Shown here in pieces: positions 30,170 to 55,569 of a DNA stretch of 64,000 bases. Numbering within the stretch: position 1 is the stretch's first letter; each line of letters opens with the position of its first letter. The stretch is from Escherichia coli. Lineage in GTDB: Bacteria; Pseudomonadota; Gammaproteobacteria; Enterobacterales; Enterobacteriaceae. The notes beneath the pieces are model-generated. The model was not told the origin of the DNA and made no database searches. It saw only the letters and a program-made list of their open reading frames with translations. The stretch is taken from assembly GCF_024502345.1 (NCBI RefSeq), contig NZ_JALDNN010000001.1. One strand, 5' to 3'. A program made the translations under genes and the position numbers.

Positions 30170-30604
30170 CAGTGTTTCTCCTTTCGCCCGCCAGAGTAAA
30201 AAGCAACCGTTTACGTTAATGAAACTGTCTAAACACATGCTCGTGGAGTGCCAGTTTTTGCGAGGAAGGGGAGTTAGAGACAGGAATTGCGGAGGCAATC
30301 ACATAATCGTGGTTAAACCACGAAAATGAGAAGAGAACCTGACAATGAAATTATCTGTAATTTTCTCATATTGATATTTCATTAATCATTCTGGCATGTC
30401 GCACTCTCGCATTTAATCGTTTTTATCTGGATAGCGCTCTTTTGGTCGGCAATGTTGAAATAATGAAAGCGGCATAGATTGAGGGGCAATAATTTGAACT
30501 CAGTCGCAAAATTATAATTAAAACGGTCATGCTACCTAATATATGCCCGTTTATTGCATCGCGAAATTTGAGAAGACATAACTCATTAAATGAAAGGGAT
30601 GCAA

Positions 30605-42377: not shown

Positions 42378-45300
42378 TTACACCTCCACGCGGCCCAGCA
42401 GATAATGATGATGCTGGTGGACATGGCTGATGATGCGGCACATATCGTTCAGCTCCGGTGGTACGTTGTTAAACTGACCTTCGCTGTCGATGTTTAACAC
42501 CCAGCTTTGGTTATTCAGACGTACTCGTACCCGGCAATCTTCCACAAGGAAGCCTGGGTTGCTGCTGTTATCAAAGTCTTGCGCCAGGCTGAAGACGGTG
42601 ATTTTGTCTTTGTATGGTTTACCGTTCCACGGACAGAACTGAGCGCAGTTGCCGCATTCGTTACAGTAAGCGTCGAGGTGCAGCGTCTGGAATCTATTCT
42701 GGAAGCCAGGGACTGCAATGGAGACGTTGGCGCGGTTCGGGCAGACATCCACGCACTTGCTGCAAACGTAGTTACATTCAAGGCAGCGAGCAGCTTCCTG
42801 CGCGACAAACGCATCACGATCGTCACTGTTCACCAGCGTGATAGAGATATCGCCTTTACGTTGATAGATTTCCGCCGGATTGACGTTGTTCCAGTATTTA
42901 TTGTTCTGGTGGGAACGGATATTTTCCCGACTAAGGATGGCATCGGTCGCCCGACGCGCGGTTCCGACAGCAGCGACAATGGAGGATGGTCCGCGCTGTA
43001 CGTCGCCGATCATAAAGACGTCAGTCAGACGAGTTTCGCCATTATGGTCGACGTCTGGCCAGCCGTTTTTGTCCAGCGGTACGCCCATCGCATTCAGGGC
43101 TTCAGTATCCTGCTGTTCACCGATGGCGGTGATCAGACTGTCTACATGCAGTGTTACTGTTTCGTTGGTTTCAACCGGACGGCGACGACCTTTCTCATCG
43201 GGTTCGCCAAGCGACATAACGCGCAAGGTTAAGGTGCCATCAGCATCGAAACATTCCGGATTATTCAGGAAACGGAACTCCACGCCGTCGTGCAACGCTT
43301 CTTCATACTCTTCGCGCCATGCGGGCATCTCTTGCAGTGAACGACGGTAAACGATCGTTGCTTTTTCTACGCCTGGAACGCGTAACGCCGCACGAGCGCA
43401 GTCCATTGCGGTGTTACCCGCCCCGACAACGACCACATGTTTGCCCAGCTTGAGCGCTGTACCCTTGTTGTATTCACGCAGGAAGGGGAGTGATTTCCAG
43501 ACATTTTGGTTGTCGCCCGCCAGTTTCACACCGCTATTTTTATCAGTGCCGGTGGCAATCAGAACATAGTGGAAGCCCTGATTTTTTAACTGTTCAACGG
43601 TCAAATCGGGTGAGCAGCCATACTCAAATTTCACGCCGTGAGCGGCAACAAAATCGATATCGTGCTGAATTAACTCTGCAGGAATACGGAACTGAGGGAT
43701 GATATTTTTCACCACGCCGCCCGCATTGGCTTCGCGTTCAAACAGCGTAACCGGATGGCCCGCTCTGGCAAGGAAGTAACCTGCAGCCAGACCCGCCGGA
43801 CCTGCACCAATCACTGCAACCGGATGGCGTGAACCAGAACCGGCTGGTTTGTGCCAGCGTTGCTTATATTCATCCCAACCTTTTTCCAGCGCGACTTTTT
43901 TCAGTTCGCGGATATTCAGTGCACTGTCGTAATCCAGGCGGGTACAGTTGTATTGGCACTGGTGATCGCAAATATGACCGGTAATGGCGGGCAGGGCGTT
44001 GCGTTGGTAGATAAGTTCCAGCGCGTCGGCATAGCGGTGTTCGCCAAGCAGACGGATGTATTCCGGAATATCTTGCTTGATCGCGCAGGCAGTAACACAG
44101 GGGGCAACGTAGCAGTCGGTCAGCGGCAGGTCTTCTGCCACTTCAATACGCTCTTCTGGCTTCCAGTGTTTCTGGGTGTATTCCATGGTTAGCGCGTCTG
44201 CTGCCAGTCTGTTCAGTCGTTCGACGTCAACATGGTCAAGTCCCCAGGCGTCGGAGCCTTCCAGCTCGCGCATGCAGGCACTTAAACGCAGATAGCCACC
44301 AGGTTTCAGCAGGTCGGTTGCCATAGTAATAGGGCGAATACCTGTATCAAAAATATCGCGGATAGTCAGCTGACTGGCACCACCGGAATAAGAAATGGGC
44401 AGTTTGCCGTCAAAGGCGCGAGAGAGAACTGCTGCAACATTGATGGAGAGCGGGAACAGCGCACGGCCTGACATATACATCTCTTCACCAGGCAGTGCGC
44501 CTTTATTGTTGATGGTGCCGAGAGTGTTAGTCAGTTTTACGCCAAAGCCGAGTGATTTTTCTTTTGCCAGTGCCATCAGGCGTTCCAGCATTTCCAGTGC
44601 TTGCGTCAGCTTGAGGTCGTGATCAAATGACTCTTCTTTTAAGCCTATGTAACCGAAACCGCAGACATCGAGGATCTCACGAACACGCGCGTACCCCAGT
44701 AAGGTCGGGTTGAGTTTCACAAAGGTGTTGAGCCCTTTTTCTTCCAGCATGTAGCGGCAAATGGCTTCGATTTCATGCGGAGGACAGCCGTGCATGGTGG
44801 AGAGGGTGACGCCCTGCACCATACTGGTGGGGATGCGAGCGGGTAAGGCTTGCAAGCTTTCGCGTTTTTCCTGCAATCCGTGGCGGGCTAAAAATGCGTC
44901 ATCCTGGAGTAATTTATTCAGCGTATCGCGATATTGCGCGAATTTCGGATGGTCAGATGCGTCCATCATATTGTCGATGAACTGTTGCATCGGCGGTTGC
45001 TTAATACCTTCAAGGTTGTAACCGACGCTCATATTAAAGATGAACGATTTACCGGAATCAGAAGGCTGGAACATCGCTTCGAGAAGGTGCAGGGCAAACC
45101 AGGCTTTGAGGTATTCATCCCAGGCTTTAAGCAGGGTAAATTCGGTAGACCATTCGGTGTTAAAGCACTCGTCTTCGGCATCGATACAGGGCTTTTCCAG
45201 CTCCAGGCGGTCAAGAATTTGGACGGTTTTTAGTTCGATGAAGCGTCCGCCAGTCAGCCAGGAAGTGACAATATTTTGCGCGAGCTGCGTGTGCGGGCCA

Positions 45301-45476
45301 GCGGCAGGGCCGACGGGAGTGGCACAGGTTTCACCGAAGACGCTAACAGTTTTACCTTTTACAGGTGAGTAAAACTGTTGCTCGGGAATACCAAAGATTG
45401 AGCGTTGTTGTTGGTATTCATCAAATATGCGCGTCAAAAGTTCCTCAAACGGAATGGGACGCATAATATCCCCCAT
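42378..45476 (-). CDS. ygfK: large Fe-S/FAD oxidoreductase (putative selenate-reductase-type / glutamate-synthase-like subunit)
   Basis: 1032 aa; [21 protein letters not shown] dinucleotide fold, multiple Cys clusters near the C-terminus. Confidence 0.9.
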   Translation of the reverse strand: MGDIMRPIPFEELLTRIFDEYQQQRSIFGIPEQQFYSPVKGKTVSVFGETCATPVGPAAGPHTQLAQNIVTSWLTGGRFIELKTVQILDRLELEKPCIDAEDECFNTEWSTEFTLLKAWDEYLKAWFALHLLEAMFQPSDSGKSFIFNMSVGYNLEGIKQPPMQQFIDNMMDASDHPKFAQYRDTLNKLLQDDAFLARHGLQEKRESLQALPARIPTSMVQGVTLSTMHGCPPHEIEAICRYMLEEKGLNTFVKLNPTLLGYARVREILDVCGFGYIGLKEESFDHDLKLTQALEMLERLMALAKEKSLGFGVKLTNTLGTINNKGALPGEEMYMSGRALFPLSINVAAVLSRAFDGKLPISYSGGASQLTIRDIFDTGIRPITMATDLLKPGGYLRLSACMRELEGSDAWGLDHVDVERLNRLAADALTMEYTQKHWKPEERIEVAEDLPLTDCYVAPCVTACAIKQDIPEYIRLLGEHRYADALELIYQRNALPAITGHICDHQCQYNCTRLDYDSALNIRELKKVALEKGWDEYKQRWHKPAGSGSRHPVAVIGAGPAGLAAGYFLARAGHPVTLFEREANAGGVVKNIIPQFRIPAELIQHDIDFVAAHGVKFEYGCSPDLTVEQLKNQGFHYVLIATGTDKNSGVKLAGDNQNVWKSLPFLREYNKGTALKLGKHVVVVGAGNTAMDCARAALRVPGVEKATIVYRRSLQEMPAWREEYEEALHDGVEFRFLNNPECFDADGTLTLRVMSLGEPDEKGRRRPVETNETVTLHVDSLITAIGEQQDTEALNAMGVPLDKNGWPDVDHNGETRLTDVFMIGDVQRGPSSIVAAVGTARRATDAILSRENIRSHQNNKYWNNVNPAEIYQRKGDISITLVNSDDRDAFVAQEAARCLECNYVCSKCVDVCPNRANVSIAVPGFQNRFQTLHLDAYCNECGNCAQFCPWNGKPYKDKITVFSLAQDFDNSSNPGFLVEDCRVRVRLNNQSWVLNIDSEGQFNNVPPELNDMCRIISHVHQHHHYLLGRVEV

Positions 45477-45548
45477 AACCCTCTCCTTAGCTTATACAGA
45501 TATCATTGAGTGACCGGTGTTGAGAAATCCGGTGGTTTAGGGGGATAG

Positions 45549-45573
45549 AGCAACAATCGCACCACTCTTGCCA
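45549..45573 (-). promoter_or_regulatory. candidate sigma-54 (-24/-12) promoter for ygfK
   Basis: Minus-strand read: TGGTGC-gattg-TTGCT (GG-N10-GC spacing), overlapped by TGGCAA-gagtg-GTGCG; about 75-95 nt upstream of the ygfK start. Confidence 0.4.
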
Positions 45574-45797
45574 GGTTTGGCGGGAAATATAAAAAAATGT
45601 GAGGCGGCTCGAAACTTAAGGGCTTTTTGTGAATGAACTCACAGGTGCTAAATGAGAATTAAAATCACTCCTGAAAATTATTATTGCCAGCCCATTTATC
45701 ACTTTTTCTCTTTTCTCAAAATCAGTGATTCCTTATCATTATGATAAAGAGTGCCGGAAGGATTAAATATTTGAACGCAATCGTTTAACTACGTTTT

Positions 45798-46376
45798 CTA
45801 AATTTCTGTATACCTTTTCTTCGCTGTAATAAAGTCGTCCGGAGTATCAATATCTAAAATTATTTCTGCATTTTCTATTTCGACGGAATAATGATCTCCC
45901 ATAAGGAGTGCCTGACGCATATTGGTGACATTGGGTCGCTGGATTGCCTGCATCAGGCATGGTTTTGACACTAAAATCGGATGGCCGGGGATGCCATTAT
46001 GGAGTGGCAGTATTGCGCCATCATTTCGTAACGACCAGATTTTTCTAAAAATATCGATGGTGAGGGTTGGCATGTCACCGTGGGTGAGAAAACAATGTTC
46101 TGTTTGCACCGCGGGTACTGCGGCCTTTACTGATGTTAGTAAACCCTGCGCATAATCTGGGTTGTGGATAATAGTGATATTGCTCTGGTTCGCATAACGT
46201 TCGTGCAGTTCATTACCACGATAGCCGGTGACTAAAATAATTCGGCTACAAAACTGCAACGCATTTTTGATACTTGTATCAAGAATTGTTCCCTGTTGCC
46301 AGGGTAACATCATTTTCCATTGCCCCATTCTTGATGATAATCCGGCAGCGGTAATTATACAGTCGATGGCTGACAT
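45798..46376 (-). CDS. mocA: molybdenum cofactor cytidylyltransferase (MobA-like NTP transferase)
   Basis: 192 aa; MSAIDCIITAAGLSSRMGQWKMMLPW... nucleotidyltransferase fold. Confidence 0.9.
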   Translation of the reverse strand: MSAIDCIITAAGLSSRMGQWKMMLPWQQGTILDTSIKNALQFCSRIILVTGYRGNELHERYANQSNITIIHNPDYAQGLLTSVKAAVPAVQTEHCFLTHGDMPTLTIDIFRKIWSLRNDGAILPLHNGIPGHPILVSKPCLMQAIQRPNVTNMRQALLMGDHYSVEIENAEIILDIDTPDDFITAKKRYTEI

Positions 46377-46478: not shown

Positions 46479-47249
46479 GTGAAAAGTATAGTTGACCCAT
46501 CGGCATTAGTCATTGATTTAGGCGCGCAGAAACGTCCCACTGTGATTTCTGTTGTTGGTGCTGGGGGGAAAACCAGCTTGCTTTTTTGGCTGGCAGAACT
46601 GCTCCAGGCTAGCGGCAGGCGTGTGTTAATCACGACGACAACACATATGTTTATGCCAACGTCTCACTGGCCCGTGGTTTTCTGTCGTGATCCCGCCATG
46701 CTTCCTCATGCGTCTCTTACATCCCCCATTTCATTTTGTTTTCACAGCTGGAAAGCGAACCAGGGAAAAGTGCAGGGATTTACGCCAGAAGCGATTGATG
46801 CACTGGTGCAACGACCAGAGTGTGACGTAATTCTCATTGAAGCAGATGGCTCGCGTGGAATGCCGTTAAAAGCGCCTGATGAGCACGAACCTTGCATACC
46901 CAAAAGCAGTTGCTGCGTGATTGCTGTGATGGGAGGACATACTTTGGGCGCGAAAGTGAGCACAGAAAATGTCCATCGCTGGTCGCAGTTTGCTGATATT
47001 ACCGTGTTAACACCTGATGCAACCTTGCAACTGAGCGATCTCGTTGCGCTGGTTCGCCACCCTCAGGGGGCGTTTAAAAACGTACCGCAAGGTTGTCGGC
47101 GAGTCTGGTTCATTAACCGTTTTTCTCAATGTGAGAATGCGATTGCACAAAGCGAGCTCCTTCAACCGCTGCAACAACACGACGTAGAGGCAATCTGGCT
47201 GGGCGATATACAAGAACATCCTGCAATCGCGCGCAGATTTGTGAATTAG
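46479..47249 (+). CDS. yqeC: selenium-dependent hydroxylase accessory protein YqeC
   Basis: 256 aa, GTG start; VVGAGGKTSLLF nucleotide-binding-like motif. Confidence 0.85.
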   Translation: MKSIVDPSALVIDLGAQKRPTVISVVGAGGKTSLLFWLAELLQASGRRVLITTTTHMFMPTSHWPVVFCRDPAMLPHASLTSPISFCFHSWKANQGKVQGFTPEAIDALVQRPECDVILIEADGSRGMPLKAPDEHEPCIPKSSCCVIAVMGGHTLGAKVSTENVHRWSQFADITVLTPDATLQLSDLVALVRHPQGAFKNVPQGCRRVWFINRFSQCENAIAQSELLQPLQQHDVEAIWLGDIQEHPAIARRFVN

Positions 47250-48922: not shown

Positions 48923-48962
48923 ATGAAAATGGCCGGATGGTATTACCCCCCCGGCCTTAAAA

Positions 48963-52649: not shown

Positions 52650-53846
52650 TTAAGGTGCTACAGCGTGTTTGCCTTCCCAGACAACTTCGCGGTAGTGCTT
52701 CACGTCGGTGTCGCCTTCAGTGCTGATAACCAGCACTACGGCATCTTTGTTCAGCGCCAGTTTTTCCATCAGGCTTTGACGTTGCGGGTGATAATGAACC
52801 GCCGCGAGAACGCCCAAACCGACAGCGCCGGATTCACCGGAGATGATGCGCGGGTCGTTGCCGTACGGATTACCCAGCACGCGCATACCTAATGCGGCAA
52901 CGCTGTCCTGGCAGGAGATGAATTGGGTGGCGCAGTTACGTAGGATTTCCCAGCCCAGCGGGTTAGGTTCGCCACAGGCCAGGCCCGCCATGATGGTGGC
53001 CATATCACCGCCAACGTTGACGATGTCGCCTTTGACGCCGGAGCGATAAATACAGTCAGCTTTGTCAGGTTCAACAATAATGCTATGCAGATTTTGCGGG
53101 CTGTAGACGTCGACCAGATAACCCAGCACACCACCGGCCATTGCACCGACACCAGCTTGCAGCAGAACGTGCGTCGGGGTTACGCCCATTTCACGCATTT
53201 GCTCGACGGCTTCATCTGCCAGGGTTGCGTAGCCTTGCATGATCCAGGATGGGATTTTGGTGTAACCTTCCCATGCCGTGTCCTGTACTACTTCCCAGCC
53301 GTGCTGCTGCGCGTGTTGCATGGTCAGGCGAACGGTATCGTCATAGTTCATATCCGTGACGATGCACTCGGCACCGAGGTTCAGAATGGCGTCAACGCGT
53401 TCCTGAGCAGAACCTTTCGGCATGTAAATCACCGCATTCTGTCCGAGTTGCTGCGCTGCCCACGCCACACCGCGCCCGTGGTTGCCGTCGGTGGTGGTGG
53501 CGAAAGTCATTTTTTCGCCGATGGCATTTTTCAGGTGCTCAAATGACAGCGTTTCGATATCAAGATGATATTTTTCACACAATAATTGAGCGATAGCGTA
53601 CGCACCGCCGAGCATTTTGAAGGCGTTCAGACCGAATCGTTTTGATTCGTCTTTGACAAGAATTTTCTTCACACCAAAAAGGTTTGCGAGATCGTCCAGC
53701 GCACAAAGCGGTGTTGGGCGATAACCAGCTATTTTCTGGTGGAACTGGCGCGCCAGTTTGGCCTGGCTTTGCGAAAAGAGCGGTGATGTTTCGCCGTTGA
53801 AAAATTTGTTATCGGCGATATCAATCTTCAATGAGAAAACGGACAT
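52650..53846 (-). CDS. ygeX: 2,3-diaminopropionate ammonia-lyase (PLP-dependent)
   Basis: 398 aa; fold-type II PLP enzyme; recognised as YgeX/DpaL. Confidence 0.9.
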   Translation of the reverse strand: MSVFSLKIDIADNKFFNGETSPLFSQSQAKLARQFHQKIAGYRPTPLCALDDLANLFGVKKILVKDESKRFGLNAFKMLGGAYAIAQLLCEKYHLDIETLSFEHLKNAIGEKMTFATTTDGNHGRGVAWAAQQLGQNAVIYMPKGSAQERVDAILNLGAECIVTDMNYDDTVRLTMQHAQQHGWEVVQDTAWEGYTKIPSWIMQGYATLADEAVEQMREMGVTPTHVLLQAGVGAMAGGVLGYLVDVYSPQNLHSIIVEPDKADCIYRSGVKGDIVNVGGDMATIMAGLACGEPNPLGWEILRNCATQFISCQDSVAALGMRVLGNPYGNDPRIISGESGAVGLGVLAAVHYHPQRQSLMEKLALNKDAVVLVISTEGDTDVKHYREVVWEGKHAVAP

Positions 53847-55184: not shown

Positions 55185-55200
55185 AACAATAAGTGTGCCA
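55185..55200 (-). promoter_or_regulatory. candidate sigma-54 promoter for the ygeW operon (perfect -24 TGGCAC, weak -12 TTGTT)
   Basis: Minus-strand read: TGGCAC-actta-TTGTT, about 90 nt upstream of ygeW and divergent from the sigma-54 activator gene ygeV. Confidence 0.35.
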
Positions 55201-55569
55201 GAATTATCCGCGCGGCTGCAAAAGACTAATTTGACGGATAATGTGTGGGGTTGATCACAAATTGATGCCAGCTTCTGGTTGTTTGTAAAATACGAAAACG
55301 TTTGGCTTTTTTTATCGCGTTATTTATTTGCTGCTAAGTATCAGAAATAAGATAAAGGGGCAGGCTATCTCTCTTCAGTTTGATAAACTCACCGCCGTAA
55401 TTCTCATATTGATATAGAAATGTGATATCTCTTCCATAATTTCATTAGAAAATGATAAAAATCTTATGTTTTTATCAAAGCCAATTTCGCCTGAGTTAAT
55501 ATCATCATGATCTGTGAACCATCAACGTCTTCAATGATCGACTTTTAAGTAAGTCTGGAAGGTAAAGCT

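Follow-up and report, generated by a model that had tools for sequence, protein, structure and literature searches.

The window, that is, the whole 64,000-nucleotide stretch of DNA that was analysed, is a segment of the Escherichia coli chromosome spanning the ygeV-to-xdhD purine/urate cluster, in reversed orientation relative to MG1655. By the open reading frame list and the RefSeq annotation, ygfK is the first gene of the ygfK–ssnA–ygfM–xdhD operon and is preceded by mocA. Between the two genes lies a spacer of 321 bp with 39% G+C, which on the ygfK strand includes the stretch ...ccaaacCTGGCAAGAGTGGTGCGATTGTTGCTctatcc...; the region, annotated as mocA followed by ygfK, is found in 5167 of 5426 complete E. 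coli genomes. Relative to MG1655, the spacer carries two SNPs (45748 and 45702), both outside the motif cores. The genes referred to below are:

42378..45476, minus strand: ygfK, first gene of the ygfK–ssnA–ygfM–xdhD operon
45798..46376, minus strand: mocA (ygfJ), the gene preceding ygfK
55570..57348, plus strand: ygeV, a bacterial enhancer-binding protein gene about 10 kb from the ygfK promoter, annotated as a sigma-54-dependent regulator

In the reductive degradation of uric acid, XdhD–YgfM reduces urate to 2,8-dioxopurine, the flavin/Fe-S reductase YgfK dearomatises this product and SsnA opens the ring; urate degradation is slowed by glucose (Life Metab 2025). The enzymes of the operon (XdhD–YgfM, YgfK and SsnA) carry out the committed steps with which the anaerobic reductive pathway begins. 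Gut bacteria remove urate by this route, and it is being engineered into probiotic E. coli against gout. Regulation of the cluster is described in the literature as poorly understood.

Within the spacer, two overlapping sequences on the ygfK strand resemble the −24/−12 element of sigma-54 promoters, in which GG and GC stand ten bases apart in the context TGGCAC-N5-TTGCW. Together with the transcript predicted from the more proximal one, they are:

45558..45574, minus strand: motif A, an overlapping sigma-54-like match, CTGGCAAGAGTGGTGCG (PSSM match; Escherichia only)
45565..45549, minus strand: motif B, sigma-54 promoter core, GTGGTGCGATTGTTGCT (identity with a ChIP-seq site, PSSM match, conservation)
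45538, minus strand: predicted transcription start (+1, an A), 11 nt 3′ of the motif B 17-mer (−24/−12 geometry)
45477..45538, minus strand: predicted 62-nt 5′ untranslated region with the Shine–Dalgarno sequence AAGGAGAG

Both had been pointed out in the earlier note, and both are present where it placed them, with exact GG-N10-GC spacing. Motif B reads TGGTGC-gattg-TTGCT at 45564..45549, with the TGG of the −24 half at 45564-45562 and the TTGC of the −12 half at 45553-45550, so that the GG falls at 45563-45562 and the GC at 45551-45550. Motif A reads TGGCAA-gagtg-GTGCG at 45573..45558 on the minus strand, 9 bp upstream of motif B, and owes its existence to a coincidental GC in the −24 half of motif B (TGGTGC). 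Both share the strand of ygfK; motif B lies 73–88 nt and motif A 82–97 nt upstream of the ygfK ATG, so that the distance of 75–95 nt given earlier is close without being exact. The description of a 320-bp AT-rich leader holds for the size and composition of the spacer but not for the word leader: the predicted 5′ untranslated region takes up only 62 nt, everything upstream of it being control DNA.

The motifs were scored with a position-specific scoring matrix (PSSM) based on Bonocora 2015, whose 135 high-stringency sigma-54 ChIP-seq motifs were reduced to 130 by leaving out the five local sites. Motif B scores 14.0–14.2 bits, which places it second among the approximately 128,000 positions of the window and at the 44th percentile of real sites. 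The top three matches in the window are the ChIP-confirmed sites of xdhA, ygfK and ygeW. About 2.1 matches as good as motif B are expected by chance per 64 kb on both strands, and 0.005 in this spacer on this strand. Motif A, at 7.9–8.3 bits, ranks 67th in the window and falls below 99% of the 130 ChIP-defined sites; a score as high as this is expected 0.12 times in the spacer on this strand. Simpler patterns are not enriched in the window, where bare TGG-N9-TGC occurs 51 times versus 47.4 expected and the consensus with up to three mismatches 336 times versus 343.6 expected. Judged by these scores and chance expectations, the sequence alone makes motif B a good candidate and motif A a weak one.

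The decisive support for motif B is published ChIP-seq occupancy together with conservation across species. Site OS31 in Table 1 of Bonocora 2015 (PMC4591121), with its peak centre at 3014019 and an FAT of 26, is assigned to ygfK with the motif GTGGTGCGATTGTTGCT, a distance of 62 nt from predicted start to ATG and the flag ‘P’, for predicted in EcoCyc. Its FAT is the 11th highest among the 135 ChIP-seq sites. Motif B and this EcoCyc-predicted promoter are the same 17-mer on the same strand at the same 62-nt distance, with no difference between them, and 62 nt falls in the 1–204 nt range of most intergenic-sense sites in that table. In a microarray study, ygfK mRNA was 2.4-fold down in an rpoN deletion (Zhao, Liu and Burgess 2010, PMC2831329) and 2.1-fold up 5 min after sigma-54 induction (Zhao 2010, PMC2831329). 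In vitro genomic SELEX with RpoN lists the ygeV/ygeW spacer, and ygfK is absent from that list.

For the comparison across species we assembled 80 ygfK loci, one genome per species, from Enterobacterales, Aeromonas, Vibrionaceae, Shewanella, some Betaproteobacteria and Spirochaetes, of which 79 were usable. In 74 of these 79 loci, the best sigma-54 match within 400 nt upstream of ygfK reaches a score of 10 or more and is located 49–154 nt from the start codon; the five without an equivalent motif are four Spirochaetes, which also lack the dyad described below, and one betaproteobacterial metagenome-assembled genome. The median best score upstream of ygfK is 15.0, against 3.4 for the opposite strand and 4.2 for a coding stretch. 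Among 33 distinct motif B 17-mers, the TGG at −26 to −24 and the TTGC at −15 to −12 are invariant and the positions between them variable, the signature of a selected −24/−12 element.

We conclude that motif B is very probably a functional sigma-54 promoter for the ygfK operon, with a predicted start site. The proposal that a sigma-54 promoter drives ygfK–ssnA–ygfM–xdhD is thus borne out by the OS31 occupancy, the rpoN expression data and the presence of the motif in 74 of 79 species. That such a promoter precedes ygfK was already known from the EcoCyc prediction, the 2010 promoter call, the 2015 ChIP-seq data and the 2023 iModulon. What the present analysis adds is modest: the choice between motifs A and B is settled for B, the depth of conservation is established, and an upstream activating sequence (UAS) of the DioR type and CRP sites are recognised.

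The predicted +1 at 45538, placed by the −24/−12 geometry, agrees with the figure of 62 nt to the ATG in Bonocora 2015. Near its 5′ end, the predicted untranslated region contains a hairpin, ACCGG-N11-CCGGT, at 45533..45513 (+6..+26). When the first 40 nt of the leader are folded, each of the 16 genera compared has a minimum-energy hairpin that begins 4–14 nt from the predicted 5′ end; the stems differ between genera and most energies are no better than those of shuffled sequences (z = −0.86 for E. coli), so that a 5′-proximal hairpin as a feature of the transcript is only hinted at. A search of the leader and spacer against Rfam returned no family at E ≤ 1. Consensus scans found neither a sigma-70-type promoter above threshold on the ygfK strand of the spacer nor a terminator after mocA, and read-through transcription from mocA may contribute to ygfK. 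The label ALTERNATIVES stands over these sigma-70/terminator, Rfam and leader-hairpin results.

Upstream of motif B, the spacer holds further conserved elements, numbered here from the predicted start:

45598..45613, minus strand: conserved block TTCGAgccgccTCACA, centre −67.5, with a perfect CRP right half (TCACATTT) and a poor left half
45628..45643, minus strand: CRP-type site TGTGAgttcatTCACA, centre −97.5 (perfect core; conservation; CRP SELEX)
45652..45667, minus strand: conserved block TGATTTTAATTCTCAT, −129..−114, at a fixed offset in Enterobacterales
45713..45725, minus strand: weaker second enhancer site CTGATTTTGAGAA, centre −181, of which only the right half (TGAGA) is good
45734..45746, minus strand: main enhancer dyad TATCAtaaTGATA, centre −202, candidate UAS for YgeV (conservation)

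The main dyad sits within the 19-mer CTTTATCATAATGATAAGG (45749..45731), and the second site CTGATTTTGAGAA lies 21 bp from it. A dyad of the form TATCA-N3-TGATA with at most one mismatch is present in 68 of 71 ygfK loci versus 2 of 71 composition-matched shuffled sequences. Dyad centres cluster at −181/−182, −201 to −203 and −214/−215, a spacing of about one or two turns of the helix. There are other genera in which −181/−182 is the position of the strong dyad, and in Vibrionaceae a second site lies about 19 bp from the first. Near other sigma-54-like matches, the dyad occurs in 6 of 48 cases versus 12 of 772 for random positions; by position, most of these appear to be divergent promoters that share the ygfK enhancer, and the other promoters of the cluster lie outside the loci compared, which makes the association uninformative. 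In Morganella (loci L044, L046 and L047), a second sigma-54-like motif, (A/G)TGGCCCGGAACTTGCT, scores 14.9 bits about 500 nt upstream of ygfK on the opposite strand; it is directed away from ygfK and has the dyad region in common with the ygfK promoter, which suggests, from sequence, a divergent sigma-54 promoter pair on one enhancer.

The same dyad accompanies the other sigma-54 sites of the cluster, which are located in the window as follows:

30542..30558, plus strand: ygfT sigma-54 site (OS32)
55201..55185, minus strand: ygeW sigma-54 site (OS30)
61122..61106, minus strand: xdhA sigma-54 site (OS29)
45734-45746, 30364-30376, 55402-55414, 55500-55512 and 61241-61253, upstream of the four sigma-54 sites: cluster dyads, TATCA-N3-TGATA (variant TCTCA-N3-TGATA)

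These dyads belong to ygfK, ygfT (TCTCATATTGATA, at −199), the ygeV–ygeW spacer (two) and xdhA. With at most one mismatch, the dyad occurs seven times in the 64-kb window, and five of these occurrences fall in the four sigma-54 upstream regions, where 0.13 are expected; none of 1000 simulations reached five. Like ygfK, the xdhA, ygeW and ygfT sites have TATCA-N3-TGATA-type dyads approximately 130–330 bp upstream of the predicted start and are members of the YgeV iModulon. Among the four upstream regions, a perfect dyad and a perfect CRP core are found at ygfK alone; the ChIP signal of ygfK is the strongest (FAT 26 versus 11, 3 and 3), and its −24 half is atypical in reading TGGTGC, not TGGCAC. 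Elsewhere in the window, a perfect dyad (TATCAAGATGATA, 53558-53570) lies inside the coding sequence just downstream of ygeW, apparently ygeX; it may have arisen by chance or be a YgeV-type site internal to the gene.

The most obvious candidate to bind the dyad is YgeV, whose Pfam domains are a PAS domain (162-205), Sigma54_activat (272-439, E = 8e-71), an AAA lid and HTH_8 (548-587). The gene ygeV, which the earlier note mentioned as a nearby sigma-54 activator, lies about 10 kb away, and its product has the domains of a complete enhancer-binding protein (PAS, Sigma54_activat and HTH_8). The inferred YgeV iModulon includes the ygfK operon (Lamoureux et al. 2023), and the reported effect of YgeV is only on ygfT. 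In the literature that mentions YgeV we found no YgeV binding site, binding data or YgeV-dependent ygfK expression. A ygeV homologue lies within 4 kb of ygfK in 1 of the 80 loci (L060), a count that covers the fetched loci only and makes co-occurrence uninformative. We regard the link between YgeV and the ygfK promoter as plausible and the −202 dyad as probably the YgeV site, with YgeV the presumed binder. As a candidate YgeV operator, the dyad has no description for E. coli in the literature searched. Two other identities were rejected by inspection: an FNR box has its half-sites in the opposite order, and the resemblance to a Fur box is confined to Escherichia, the conserved feature being ATCA-N3-TGAT with a free N3.

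The CRP-type site TGTGAgttcatTCACA, located between dyad and promoter, is the only perfect TGTGA-N6-TCACA in the 64-kb window. A CRP core with at most one mismatch occurs at any position in 32 of 71 loci versus 1 of 71 shuffled sequences; in 27 loci, almost exclusively Enterobacterales, it is at −97.5 or −98.5. The in vitro targets of CRP in genomic SELEX include ygfK, ygeV<>ygeW and ygfT<>ygfU. As at ygfK, the ygeV–ygeW spacer has a CRP-like core, here with one mismatch (TGTGATCAACCCCACA on the ygeW strand, 55244-55259), whose centre is about 77 nt upstream of the sigma-54 start predicted for ygeW. The block centred at −67.5 has two mismatches to the CRP core. Its pattern, GA-N6-TCAC(A/G) followed by an A/T-rich run, is found at a near-fixed offset from Escherichia to Aeromonas, Photobacterium and Shewanella and is kept even in loci without the −97.5 core; going by its sequence, a weak second site for CRP is one possibility and a different architectural site another. 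In the TGATTTTAATTCTCAT block, ATTCTCAT/ATACTCAT is retained in Vibrionaceae, and part of the block is the half-site TTCTCA, which inverts the TGAGAA found at −177. By inspection there is no convincing match to the IHF consensus (WATCAANNNNTTR) between enhancer and promoter. An architectural or co-activating role of CRP at the ygfK promoter is a possibility to which we give somewhat less than even weight.

A closely related arrangement has been predicted in Clostridiales, where the DioR regulon comprises ygeW–ygfK–ssnA–ygeY, yqeC–ygfJ–yqeB and xdhABC (Nie et al. 2019, PMC6615313). The DioR UAS was predicted as ATTTATCA-N3-TGATAAnn, with C. difficile variants AATTCTCA-N3-TGAGAATT, the dyads being TTATCA-N3-TGATAA or TTCTCA-N3-TGAGAA approximately 175–390 bp upstream of the start codon (PMC6615313). 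The ygfK cluster and the DioR regulon share homologous target genes and the combination of a sigma-54 promoter with UAS dyads, and the predicted UAS of the C. botulinum ygeW–ygfK–ssnA–ygeY operon, ATTTATCATAATGATAAGG, agrees with CTTTATCATAATGATAAGG of E. coli in 18 of the 19 positions. Written as T(A/C)TCA-N3-TGA(T/G)A, the dyad motif of the E. coli cluster is the one given by Nie et al. 2019. The DioR regulon is a computational prediction in Firmicutes, and E. coli and YgeV are outside that paper (PMC6615313). Unlike the DioR regulon, the proteobacterial ygfK promoter has additional CRP-type sites.

In mechanism only, the ygfK promoter also resembles that of prpBCDE, with the difference that CRP-type sites occupy the usual position of IHF. 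The prpBCDE promoter of E. coli and Salmonella is a sigma-54 promoter with PrpR, IHF and CRP, in which a dedicated enhancer-binding protein and control by CRP–cAMP bring a nutrient signal and catabolite repression together on one promoter. There, IHF is the documented bending protein.

Taken together, these elements lead us to a model that we consider likely as a whole, in which sigma-54 acts at motif B, YgeV at the dyad and CRP between them; the start site, the involvement of YgeV and the role of CRP are what we infer. RNA polymerase with sigma-54 would form a closed complex at motif B. The −202 dyad, with the −181 site as a weaker one, would be occupied by an enhancer-binding protein, most likely YgeV, which would contact the polymerase through DNA looping and use ATP to open the promoter. 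Transcription would start at about 45538 and give a ygfK–ssnA–ygfM–xdhD mRNA with a 62-nt leader. CRP–cAMP at −97.5, and possibly at −67.5, would sit between enhancer and promoter, conferring catabolite control and probably supplying the DNA bend. With a start site that is predicted, the term promoter, as opposed to binding site, stops short of formal proof. The microarray effects on ygfK of only about two-fold are a point against the model, as is the absence of ygfK from the RpoN SELEX list.

Both overlapping motifs have been put forward in print before, motif A by Zhao 2010 and motif B by Bonocora 2015. Zhao 2010 (PMC2831329) proposed aaccTGGCAAGAGTGGTGCGATtgtt, which is motif A, as the ygfK promoter. 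It is very improbable, in our view, that motif A (TGGCAAgagtgGTGCG, 45573..45558) is functional, or that A and B serve as alternative registers 9 bp apart. Apart from its assignment by Zhao, Liu and Burgess, motif A has the right GG-N10-GC spacing and, in TGGCA, the better −24 half, but its −12 region, GTGCG, is without TTGC, and its score is low, with the chance expectation given above. Nor is it found outside Escherichia: at its offset only three loci, all Escherichia, score above 6 (8.25, 6.4 and 6.3), the median over 74 anchored loci is −18, and in many genera the GC of the would-be −12 element is replaced by GT or CC. MEME applied to the ChIP-seq data picked motif B, and the peak centre is 18 bp from B versus 27 bp from A. 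Motif A is most likely a chance overlap, specific to Escherichia and probably non-functional, and the suggestion that it forms a second functional element is not supported, given its low score and narrow distribution. That both motifs are functionless chance matches in an A/T-rich spacer has next to no probability as a joint account. The minimal pattern does occur at the chance rate in the window, and 64 kb should contain about two matches of the quality of motif B. Against this, motif B is on the right strand and at the right distance from the gene, the expectation for this spacer and strand is 0.005, and occupancy in vivo is combined with conservation across species; chance is refuted for B and remains the best description of A.

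A different alternative accepts motif B as a sigma-54 binding site that rarely or never fires and has the operon transcribed mainly by sigma-70 polymerase, which would either read through from mocA or start at a promoter in the spacer that depends on CRP. Bonocora et al. (PMC4591121) noted that sigma-54 binding sites are not necessarily promoters, and such a reading would accommodate the expression changes of only about two-fold linked to rpoN, the perfect CRP site in the spacer, the presence of ygfK in the CRP SELEX list, the undetected terminator after mocA and a TATATT hexamer seen by eye at 45591-45586. The A/T run that holds this hexamer is not conserved as a −10 hexamer, however, and the scan gave no sigma-70-type promoter above threshold on the ygfK strand. 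Were the site inactive, it would not have retained an invariant −24/−12 element at a constrained distance from ygfK in 74 species together with a helically phased dyad, and an equivalent arrangement of sigma-54 promoter and dyad is predicted for the clostridial cluster. We therefore hold transcription by sigma-70 past an inactive motif B to be unlikely and retain motif B as the ygfK promoter.

A broader reading, which we offer tentatively and consider rather doubtful in its entirety, is that the spacer is a complete, long-conserved enhancer-dependent switch in which the dyads would be the YgeV operator, YgeV the proteobacterial counterpart of DioR, and CRP–cAMP at −97.5 and −67.5 a replacement for IHF, bending the DNA to bring YgeV to the sigma-54 polymerase. 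If so, the operator would have remained almost unchanged between Firmicutes and Gammaproteobacteria, and uric-acid catabolism would depend on a purine signal as well as on glucose being absent. The literature searched contains no E. coli YgeV operator and no architectural role of CRP at the ygfK promoter. For engineering of the pathway and for definition of the YgeV regulon, three points would be useful: the correct choice between two published promoter assignments, the operator-like dyad common to all four sigma-54 promoters of the cluster, and the CRP sites as a possible explanation of glucose repression.

Two further observations concern the neighbouring genes. An intragenic sigma-54 site in yqeC (46880-46896, plus strand), pointing at yqeB, is Bonocora site IS34, TGAGCACGAACCTTGCA. 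Near-identical counterparts, GGGGCACGAACCTTGCA and AGGGCATGAACCTTGCA, occur in Edwardsiella, Enterobacillus and Ferrimonas (loci L018, L022, L026 and L051, minus strand), and this sequence conservation suggests an internal promoter for yqeB. The strain also differs from MG1655 in the gap between the convergent genes yqeA and yqeB, which is 40 bp here (48923-48962) and 220 bp in MG1655 (locus L001, 15395-15614), where 180 bp of extra REP-like repeats are flanked by a near-duplicate of the hairpin GGCCGGGTGGGTAATACCATCCGGCC.
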